Below the pieces are notes generated by a model. The model searched no databases and was not told the DNA's origin. It was given only the letters and a program-made list of their open reading frames with translations. From assembly GCA_031835245.2 (NCBI GenBank), contig JAVKOQ020000043.1:186001-250000 (forward strand): a DNA stretch of 64,000 nucleotides, written 5' to 3'. This stretch comes from Balamuthia mandrillaris (lineage: Eukaryota). Made by a program: the position numbers and the translations under genes. This document shows positions 15,377 to 16,359 of the stretch, one piece after another (the stretch's first letter is position 1; every line of letters begins with the position of its first letter).

Positions 15377-16359
15377 TGAGCTCTAGATACAAATTTTCCG
15401 CGTGAATTTTAGCTGGTTGGGAATATGTTCCCAAACCCTACGAACTTTTGGTGTACGTTGGAACCAGGTACATCCACCAAAAAGTCAAAGAGGAAAAAAG
15501 AAAGTAGAAGCATAAAGTGGTCCACGATGCCGAAAAAGCCTGGGGAACTGAAGCAAAAGGTGCTCCGAAGGGTGAAGAAAGAGACCTTGGCAGCGATAAC
15601 CAAGTATGTTCTTTCAAAACAACCGAAGTTGTGGGGGTTGAAGAAGAAAGGGCAATTCATCTCCAACTCAATTGTTGTGGCCCTGTACAAGGACCTAACA
15701 GGCCAAGGCTATAACTCCCTCCATGACGAAGTCCGCCCATGGCTTGGAGTAAGTGCCAAGTCCTTGCAGCACAATACCAAGGTGCAACCCAAAAGGGGAT
15801 TCCACTCTTTTTTGAGATCCGTGGAGTCCATCGTGAGGTTCACCTTTTCAAGCCATTTTGGGCGTCGAACTTGCACACCAGCCCTCTTCCAGGCCTCTTG
15901 TCTGCCCCGCTTGATCTGGCGTCTTCCCCACTTGGCCATTACCTGCCTAAGCACCTTGGTATTGTGCTGCAAGGACTTGGCACTTACTCCAAGCCATGGG
16001 CGGACTTCGTCATGGAGGGAGTTATAGCCTTGGCCTGTTAGGTCCTTGTACAGGGCCACAACAATTGAGTTGGAGATGAATTGCCCTTTCTTCTTCAACC
16101 CCCACAACTTCGGTTGTTTTGAAAGAACATACTTGGTTATCGCTGCCAAGGTCTCTTTCTTCACCCTTCGGAGCACCTTTTGCTTCAGTTCCCCAGGCTT
16201 TTTCGGCATCGTGGACCACTTTATGCTTCTACTTTCTTTTTTCCTCTTTGACTTTTTGGTGGATGTACCTGGTTCCAACGTACACCAAAAGTTCGTAGGG
16301 TTTGGGAACATATTCCCAACCAGCTAAAATTCACGCGGAAAATTTGTATCTAGAGCTCA
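15377..16359. mobile_element. Fold-back (inverted-duplicated) remnant of a DNA transposon: arms 15377-15785 and 15951-16359, 165-bp spacer
   Basis: tgagctctagatacaaattttccgcg... at 15377 is the reverse complement of ...cgcggaaaatttgtatctagagctca ending at 16359. ORFs 15425-16027(+) and 15709-16311(-) have identical N-terminal ~120 aa. The minus-strand frame continues through the spacer to a VNLTMDSTDL motif resembling the first catalytic Asp of IS5/Harbinger-type (DDE_Tnp_4) transposases. Confidence 0.75.
15786..16311 (-). pseudogene. Truncated transposase-like ORF (N-terminal DNA-binding region plus first DDE Asp only)
   Basis: MPKKPGELKQKVLRRVKKETLAAI...LYKDLTGQGYNSLHDEV...SLQHNTKVLRQVMAKW...VNLTMDSTDLKKEW, then broken by the fold-back junction at 15785. 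Confidence 0.55.

Follow-up and report, generated by a model that had tools for sequence, protein, structure and literature searches.

A 983-bp palindrome built from the left end of an IS5/PHIS-like transposon in Balamuthia mandrillaris: structure, probable origin and possible action as a hairpin RNA

It is an open question how an active transposon is first singled out to be silenced; the killer loci compared here all come from maize. As in those loci, part of a DNA transposon has been naturally duplicated in inverted orientation in the 983-bp palindrome at 15377..16359 of the Balamuthia mandrillaris DNA analysed here (a stretch of 64 kb, hereafter the window). A sequence-only reading had proposed that the palindrome was either a hairpin source of small RNAs or a transposon with two left ends. 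How was it formed, and might its transcript act against its own transposon family? The two questions lie on separate axes, and a silencing role is compatible with the origin favoured below.

Structure of the palindrome and its donor element

Inverted-repeat comparison of the window confirmed two arms (15377-15785 and 15951-16359) of 409 nt each, 100% complementary and separated by 165 nt. This was the sole long non-microsatellite inverted repeat among the window's 25 longest, the runner-up (99 nt, 77%) consisting of CT/GA repeats, and no further copies of the palindrome unit or of its protein were found within the window. The fold predicted for the palindrome had an energy of -679 kcal/mol (z = -61), while the predicted folding of the spacer and of a motif at 16360-16410 was no better than that of shuffled sequences; an Rfam search of 14500-16600 gave five matches, every one far below the gathering score. 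The window is eukaryotic and its genes are spliced. The palindrome is flanked on one side by a CLU/TPR gene (end at 14575) and on the other by a spliced gene (start at 16411). The CLU/TPR gene encodes a polyglutamine tract at 11430-11645, with ~72 in-frame CAA repeats.

The minus-strand ORF starting at ATG 16209 matched the B. mandrillaris protein P0001 up to MDSTDLKKE, with one substitution and a 28-residue gap, and the window protein was identical to one B. mandrillaris annotation. P0001 matched the Pfam family DDE_Tnp_4 with 48 bits (cut-off 24.8), as well as DDE_Tnp_1, in agreement with the proposed recent inverted duplication of a transposase 5′ end. Pfam searches with the window ORFs alone gave no match, the family being recognised only via P0001. 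The complete ORF was taken to comprise 289 codons, and the gap in P0001 to be a mispredicted intron, because relatives align through those 28 residues. Related transposons, whose presence in the genome the sequence-only reading had required, were indeed found: P0002 contains a second, near-identical transposase copy, and P0003 and P0004 are diverged relatives (52-57%). P0002 is annotated as an ankyrin-repeat protein fused to the transposase copy, probably a gene-model merge, and misses two residues just before VESPF.

The whole element was recovered from the DNA run X1. A 1,174-nt contig matched 16349-15805, continued further, and at its other end matched 16302-16349 again, while a 40-nt contig of depth 288 covered 16320-16359. 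Together, these two contigs lead to an element of ~1,194 bp with 58-bp terminal inverted repeats (TIRs). A contig of run X2 departed from the window before 15805 into codons for GRRTISKKDD, as in P0001. Judged from these sequences, the donor is a ~1.19-kb single-ORF IS5/PHIS-like DDE transposon. The full-length X1 contig differed from both arms at 16009 and 16083, the latter difference creating a stop at codon 43; the bases common to both arms at these positions suggest one donor, or conversion.

Counting the T at 15377 as base 1, the left arm (15377..15785, plus strand) corresponds to element bases 1-409, which include the left TIR, the 5′ leader and the first 86 transposase codons (ATG at 15527); the right arm (15951..16359, minus strand) contains the same bases, with its ATG at 16209. 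The 58-bp TIR is thus present as a left copy (15377..15434, plus strand) and as its mirror, the right copy (16302..16359, minus strand). Both outer ends stop at the identical element terminus, as had been proposed and as the X1 contigs confirmed. The element itself would begin with G, the terminal T probably being part of the target.

The spacer had been read as a simple continuation of the transposase ORF. This holds for 146 of its 165 bp (15805..15950, minus strand), which correspond to element bases 410-555, run to the codons for MDSTDLKKE, include the first catalytic D and would form the unpaired loop; full-length copies diverge before 15805. The other 19 bp (15786..15804, minus strand) are neither arm nor continuation, and come from the transposase 3′ part, ~340 bp further in (element ~896-914, catalytic-E codons), placed out of frame. 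The segment 15805-15785 translates to VESPFGL, identical to P0001 residues 221-227 around the catalytic E, and none of 125,990 control 21-mers of the window matched at least six residues of that half of P0001. The X1 bin depths of 31.5 and 63.5 equal those expected for 15 and 49 bases at depth 105, an agreement indicating that the full-length X1 contig itself covers 15785-15804. One copy in the palindrome therefore runs over element bases 1-555, skips ~340 bp and resumes at ~896-915, and the other is bases 1-409, inverted. The template switch earlier placed at a GCACC of the inner junction did not stand, since GCACC is the arm edge only; a single G is common to both sides at each inner join (15805 and 15785).

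The resulting transposase ORF (15805..16209, minus strand) is truncated to 135 codons, versus the inferred 289, and has neither the second D nor an E in frame. The palindrome cannot encode a whole transposase; as it keeps two TIRs, however, it could be moved in trans. The KP protein of the P element binds at TIRs and represses transposition, and the truncated N-terminal protein might act likewise. Its 135 residues were modelled confidently by AlphaFold as a helical domain (pLDDT 92, six helices) and the ATG has been kept in both arms; nevertheless, a Foldseek search against the PDB gave no match at E ≤ 0.001, an HTH Pfam match was absent, and a hairpin RNA should translate poorly. Such a repressor is therefore considered highly improbable.

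Insertion site and origin of the palindrome

Seven of the 22 listed sequencing runs were compared with the window. Both flank-to-TIR joins were present in the DNA runs X1 and X2. The flank contigs of these runs reach 30 bp into the 58-bp TIR, so that the site could there hold an ordinary full-length element; no contig across the palindrome centre was found in X1 or X2, the depth in those bins being accounted for by other contigs. The centre was recovered from runs X3 and X4, which come from one sample under a study label different from that of X1 and X2. An X3 contig reproduced the centre exactly (15721-15905), extending 65 and 100 letters past the two joins; an exact X4 contig (15756-15869) bridged the deletion join and extended past the inversion join by 30 letters on the left, one fewer than the bridging rule demands. 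Although labelled ‘DNA?’, X3 and X4 were treated as RNA because the exons of the neighbouring gene appear spliced in them. The junctions, whose reality the sequence-only reading had left to independent reads, are thus found with their flanks in X1 and X2 and their centre in X3 and X4. An assembly or fold-back read artefact could appeal to the missing centre contig in the two DNA runs, and to the fact that X1, X2 and P0005, the only annotated protein that reads through the palindrome junction (a one-member cluster), possibly come from the window's own source and may not be independent of it. Against this, the flanks are collinear with the empty allele, and an artefact would have had to repeat two centre breakpoints base for base in X3 and X4, which differ from X1 and X2 in sample and study label; this makes it most improbable.

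The empty allele was found in a contig of run X6, in which 15378 and 16358 are connected through 16 other letters, and the identical 16 letters were present in two of four raw reads of run X17. The insertion is polymorphic, two other samples having the empty site. Since X6 and X17 differ in sample and study and have the same 16 letters, the 18 bp between the T of the left triplet and the A of the right one are taken to be ancestral and lost in the window. The left target triplet is AGT (15375..15377, plus strand), its T being the first ‘arm’ base, and the empty allele agrees with the window as far as 15378; the right triplet is ATT (16359..16361, plus strand), with the empty allele resuming at 16358. 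Both are of the ANT type, and ATT is no duplicate of AGT. Of the full-length copies, TIRs and target site duplications that were to be looked for, the ~1,194-bp copy and the 58-bp TIRs were found in X1; there was no target duplication at the palindrome, and in the runs compared no paired duplication was seen for a Balamuthia copy.

Some further observations concern this site. A minor X1 contig (depth 22.5 versus 40-50) skips 14838-16364, with a short side of 37 letters, and might represent a minor haplotype; the depths of the X1 alleles, close to 2:1, point to unequal proportions of the haplotypes. A motif beside the insertion (16364-16400) had a summed X1 depth of 933-1755, versus 40-70 for single-copy DNA; it has a 5-bp stem, CTAG and varied A-rich 3′ flanks, gave no Rfam match, and is possibly the end of another repeat in which the transposon landed. 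Among the loose ends found at 15377, 16359 and 16360, one other insertion flank has 9 bp in common with the empty site, and two other family flanks resemble each other and the TIR, which might reflect target preference or nesting.

These data bear on how the palindrome arose. The favoured explanation (probability about 0.6) is that two copies came to lie tail-to-tail ~20 bp apart through local or hybrid-end transposition, and that the centre was then trimmed. An element would have inserted at one ANT site; then either a local hop, or a transposition combining the left end on one sister chromatid with the right end on the other, would have brought a second copy into the ANT site 18 bp away. By our reasoning on the geometry, both variants predict the same product, L..R-spacer-R..L. 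A break in the centre, followed by asymmetric end-joining, would have removed both right ends and the 18 bp, and a further 340-bp deletion would have occurred within the loop. Hybrid element insertion has been described (PMC2775673), and perfect palindromes are stabilised through asymmetric centre deletions (PMC8701086). This origin is favoured because one central deletion explains together the lost 18 bp, the absent target duplication and the absent right ends; it also agrees with the position of both outer joins, which coincide to the base with the element end and lie at ANT triplets. Against it, the target rule is imperfect (ANT at three of five Balamuthia ends, and an identical pair in one of three relatives), and the TG/CA found both in the empty site and at the ends of the element is also compatible with a template switch that needs no transposase.

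Such a switch is the basis of the strongest competitor, which is nonetheless considered rather unlikely. A single element at ATT would have broken at its right end, switched template to its own left end, copied 409 bp backwards and rejoined at ~915, helped by the TG common to flank and terminus or by TIR homology. One event could then remove both the 18 bp and the right end; the left join has TG in common and the inner join G, the arms are identical, and a full-length element at the site would agree with X1 and X2. However, the switch would have had to hit the exact terminus and an ANT triplet on 2 bp of homology, or else a prior adjacent deletion would be needed. The identity of the arms, and their bases unlike those of the full-length X1 contig at 16009 and 16083, fit either route, as well as a recent age.

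The palindrome might instead be a non-autonomous transposon with two left ends, made elsewhere and arrived as a unit. Both 58-bp TIRs are intact, and the loose ends indicate that other family insertion sites exist. But a whole unit jumping into this site, as the sequence-only reading had suggested, is not supported, given the absent target duplication and the loss of 18 bp, and P0005 is the sole annotated protein through the junction; this alternative is judged very unlikely.

Transcription and a possible silencing role

The trimmed doublet favoured above would carry the promoter kept in each left end, from which transcription would proceed inward. The sequence-only reading had made its proposal conditional on transcription, which is probable: the palindrome centre is present in contigs of the spliced runs X3 and X4. 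In these contigs the centre had a depth of 2.4-2.9 and the arm one of 6.75-7.55, versus 87-96 for the neighbouring gene; values such as the X4 arm at 6.75 and loop at 2.4 are contig depths and no measure of expression, since the contigs carry no strand, start or level. Arm cover in X4 began at 15479 (element base 103), while the X3 arm contig ran in from another locus. Raw RNA reads of X17 and X19 (~3-5% of the runs read) gave four and six reads, none of them inside the palindrome, a sample too thin for strand or level. The palindrome is thus likely to be weakly transcribed, although DNA carry-over could also give a centre at depth 2.4-2.9 in this one sample. A transcript through the unit would, according to the fold prediction, form a 300-400-bp hairpin.

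The neighbouring spliced host gene (plus strand, followed from 16411 to 17133) starts ~50 bp downstream, has GT..AG joints at 16716-16802 and 16900-17002, and was well covered in the runs containing the palindrome centre. It gave no Pfam match and may be EMC10-like.

The hairpin had further been proposed as a substrate for the host's RNase III enzymes, and the window itself encodes such an enzyme (33479-35770, minus strand; the gene probably extends further up). It has two catalytic motifs, a dsRBD and a weak PAZ-like match. It is Drosha-like rather than Dicer-like, its best PDB match being human Drosha (E 3e-38), with Dicers at 4e-16 or weaker. By analogy with maize, the palindrome might be a working ‘killer’ locus, in which host RNase III would cut the hairpin RNA and the resulting small RNAs would silence the family in trans.

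Balamuthia and Acanthamoeba are closely related. In addition to the RNase III gene, two points would favour silencing: the architecture is that of the maize killer loci Ac killer and Mu killer, and, among the contigs aligned from X3 and X4 (three and four, respectively), those crossing element base 555 all take the deletion path and none the full-length one, which is a weak hint. In Dictyostelium, a fold-back fragment of the transposon Skipper matches small RNAs (PMC2175303). On the other side, the palindrome has a depth of ~3-7 versus 87-96 for its neighbour, and, given the stop at codon 43 of the full-length X1 contig, there may be few active copies to silence. Dicer-like and Argonaute genes as well as miRNAs are present in Acanthamoeba, but no RdRP was found there, and the unicellular amoebae of that study lacked transposon small RNAs (PMC11014262). 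Because Acanthamoeba reportedly lacks both, the silencing role was lowered to a doubtful possibility. The table of RNAi genes in one review is confined to Naegleria and Acanthamoeba (PMC13315211), and in the available part of the Balamuthia genome preprint transposons await annotation and RNAi terms are not mentioned. Should the role hold, this would be a killer made by the amoeba transposon itself: aberrant jumping of a compact IS5-like element would yield a hairpin, Drosha-like cutting and RdRP-free silencing, a scheme that is equally doubtful.

Mu killer had been offered as the comparison, and its architecture is indeed alike; the closer model is Ac killer. In the Ac killer alleles p1-ww-id1 and p1-ww-id4, two inverted 5′ fragments of one DNA transposon, unequal in length, are fused at their broken ends, the promoter is retained, and the locus is the product of aberrant transposition (bioRxiv 10.1101/2020.01.07.897926). 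Those alleles, however, derive from a hAT element, measure several kb and are flanked by 8-bp target site duplications and large duplications; dsRNA, siRNA and heritable silencing have been proven for them, while their fusion point could not be sequenced (bioRxiv 10.1101/2020.01.07.897926). The Balamuthia palindrome, in contrast, is IS5/PHIS-like, has 983 bp, no target duplication, 18 bp lost, a resolved centre and a hypothetical silencing role. A composite insertion of the Ac type, formed by re-replication, was rejected since it requires a flanking target duplication and the triplets are AGT and ATT. Mu killer also has both TIRs from the same element end and two partial transposase copies in inverted orientation, but belongs to the Mutator superfamily, has ~1.3-kb arms, is proposed to be transcribed by read-through from the flanking gene, and has been shown to silence (PMC3440606). 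The Skipper fragment of Dictyostelium discoideum is an amoebozoan transposon fragment with a possible ~320-bp stem that matches cloned small RNAs; unlike the palindrome, it derives from an LTR retrotransposon, has a ~900-nt loop and resides in a host with RdRPs (PMC2175303).

The palindrome centre preserves a record of how the locus formed, whereas in Ac killer and Mu killer the corresponding steps could not be sequenced. Should Balamuthia have no RdRP, as is reported of Acanthamoeba, transposon dsRNA could arise in few ways, a fold-back locus being one of them. A true killer locus here would carry the maize mechanism over to a third transposon superfamily and to a remote lineage in which carrier and non-carrier strains occur naturally; without small RNAs, the palindrome would be an ordinary transposition scar. 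The presence of the allele in some samples and its absence from others make the silencing question testable.

The transposon family

A profile built from 12 relatives recovered 1,194 cluster representatives at E ≤ 0.001, 359 of them at E ≤ 1e-30, mostly of ~300 aa; the hosts named by the sources were Balamuthia, Stereomyxa and Acrasis kona. A side result is therefore a sizeable family, represented by the 359 clusters, of single-ORF transposons ~1.2 kb in length whose named hosts are protists. In an alignment of 76 sequences, D100 and E222 were invariant and D176 was conserved in at least 90%. Of the two Pfam families proposed for comparison, DDE_Tnp_4 was borne out (75 of 76 relatives) and HTH_Tnp_4 was not (0 of 76).

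TIRs were found at both ends in three of ten related metagenome loci, a fourth being cut by the contig end. The three elements measure 1,122, 1,181 and 1,100 bp and start with GAGGG, GAAGG and GAGAG. All six of their ends abut ANT triplets, the left being equal to the right only in L005. The flanks of L001 (1,122 bp) and L004 (1,181 bp) are both ANT yet non-identical, probably through chimeric assembly or mutation, and less probably because this family deletes its target or leaves it unduplicated. Among five Balamuthia ends, three had ANT (one as a 0.68-agreement consensus) and the others ATG and AAC.

The Pangu group of the PHIS superfamily and bacterial IS5 have an ANT target (PMC4482050), and the family resembles them in its DDE_Tnp_4-type core, its TIRs and its mostly ANT-type target triplets. 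Pangu elements are ~3.5 kb long, mostly have two ORFs and TIRs starting with AG or GG, and occur in plants, fungi and animals (PMC4482050), whereas the Balamuthia-type family has 1.1-1.2 kb, one ~300-aa ORF, TIRs starting with GA and protists as named hosts. Because size and ORF number differ, the family is called IS5/PHIS-like and was not filed as Pangu. Membership in bacterial IS5 was rejected (NCBIfam transpos_IS5_4, 28.7 bits versus a cut-off of 140). An IS5-like element in a rotifer is cited in PMC3673617.

Plasmids searched with tblastn gave no match to the family, and solved structures none to profile A2. In locus scans of low sensitivity, GTDB genomes gave 16 pattern matches, IMG/VR two with P0001 and two with profile A2, and metagenomes 33 with P0001, none of which was confirmed. 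No description of this locus or of the family was found in the part of the literature covered. At 171-268 of L005, the left end contains two TIR-like copies ~60 bp apart.
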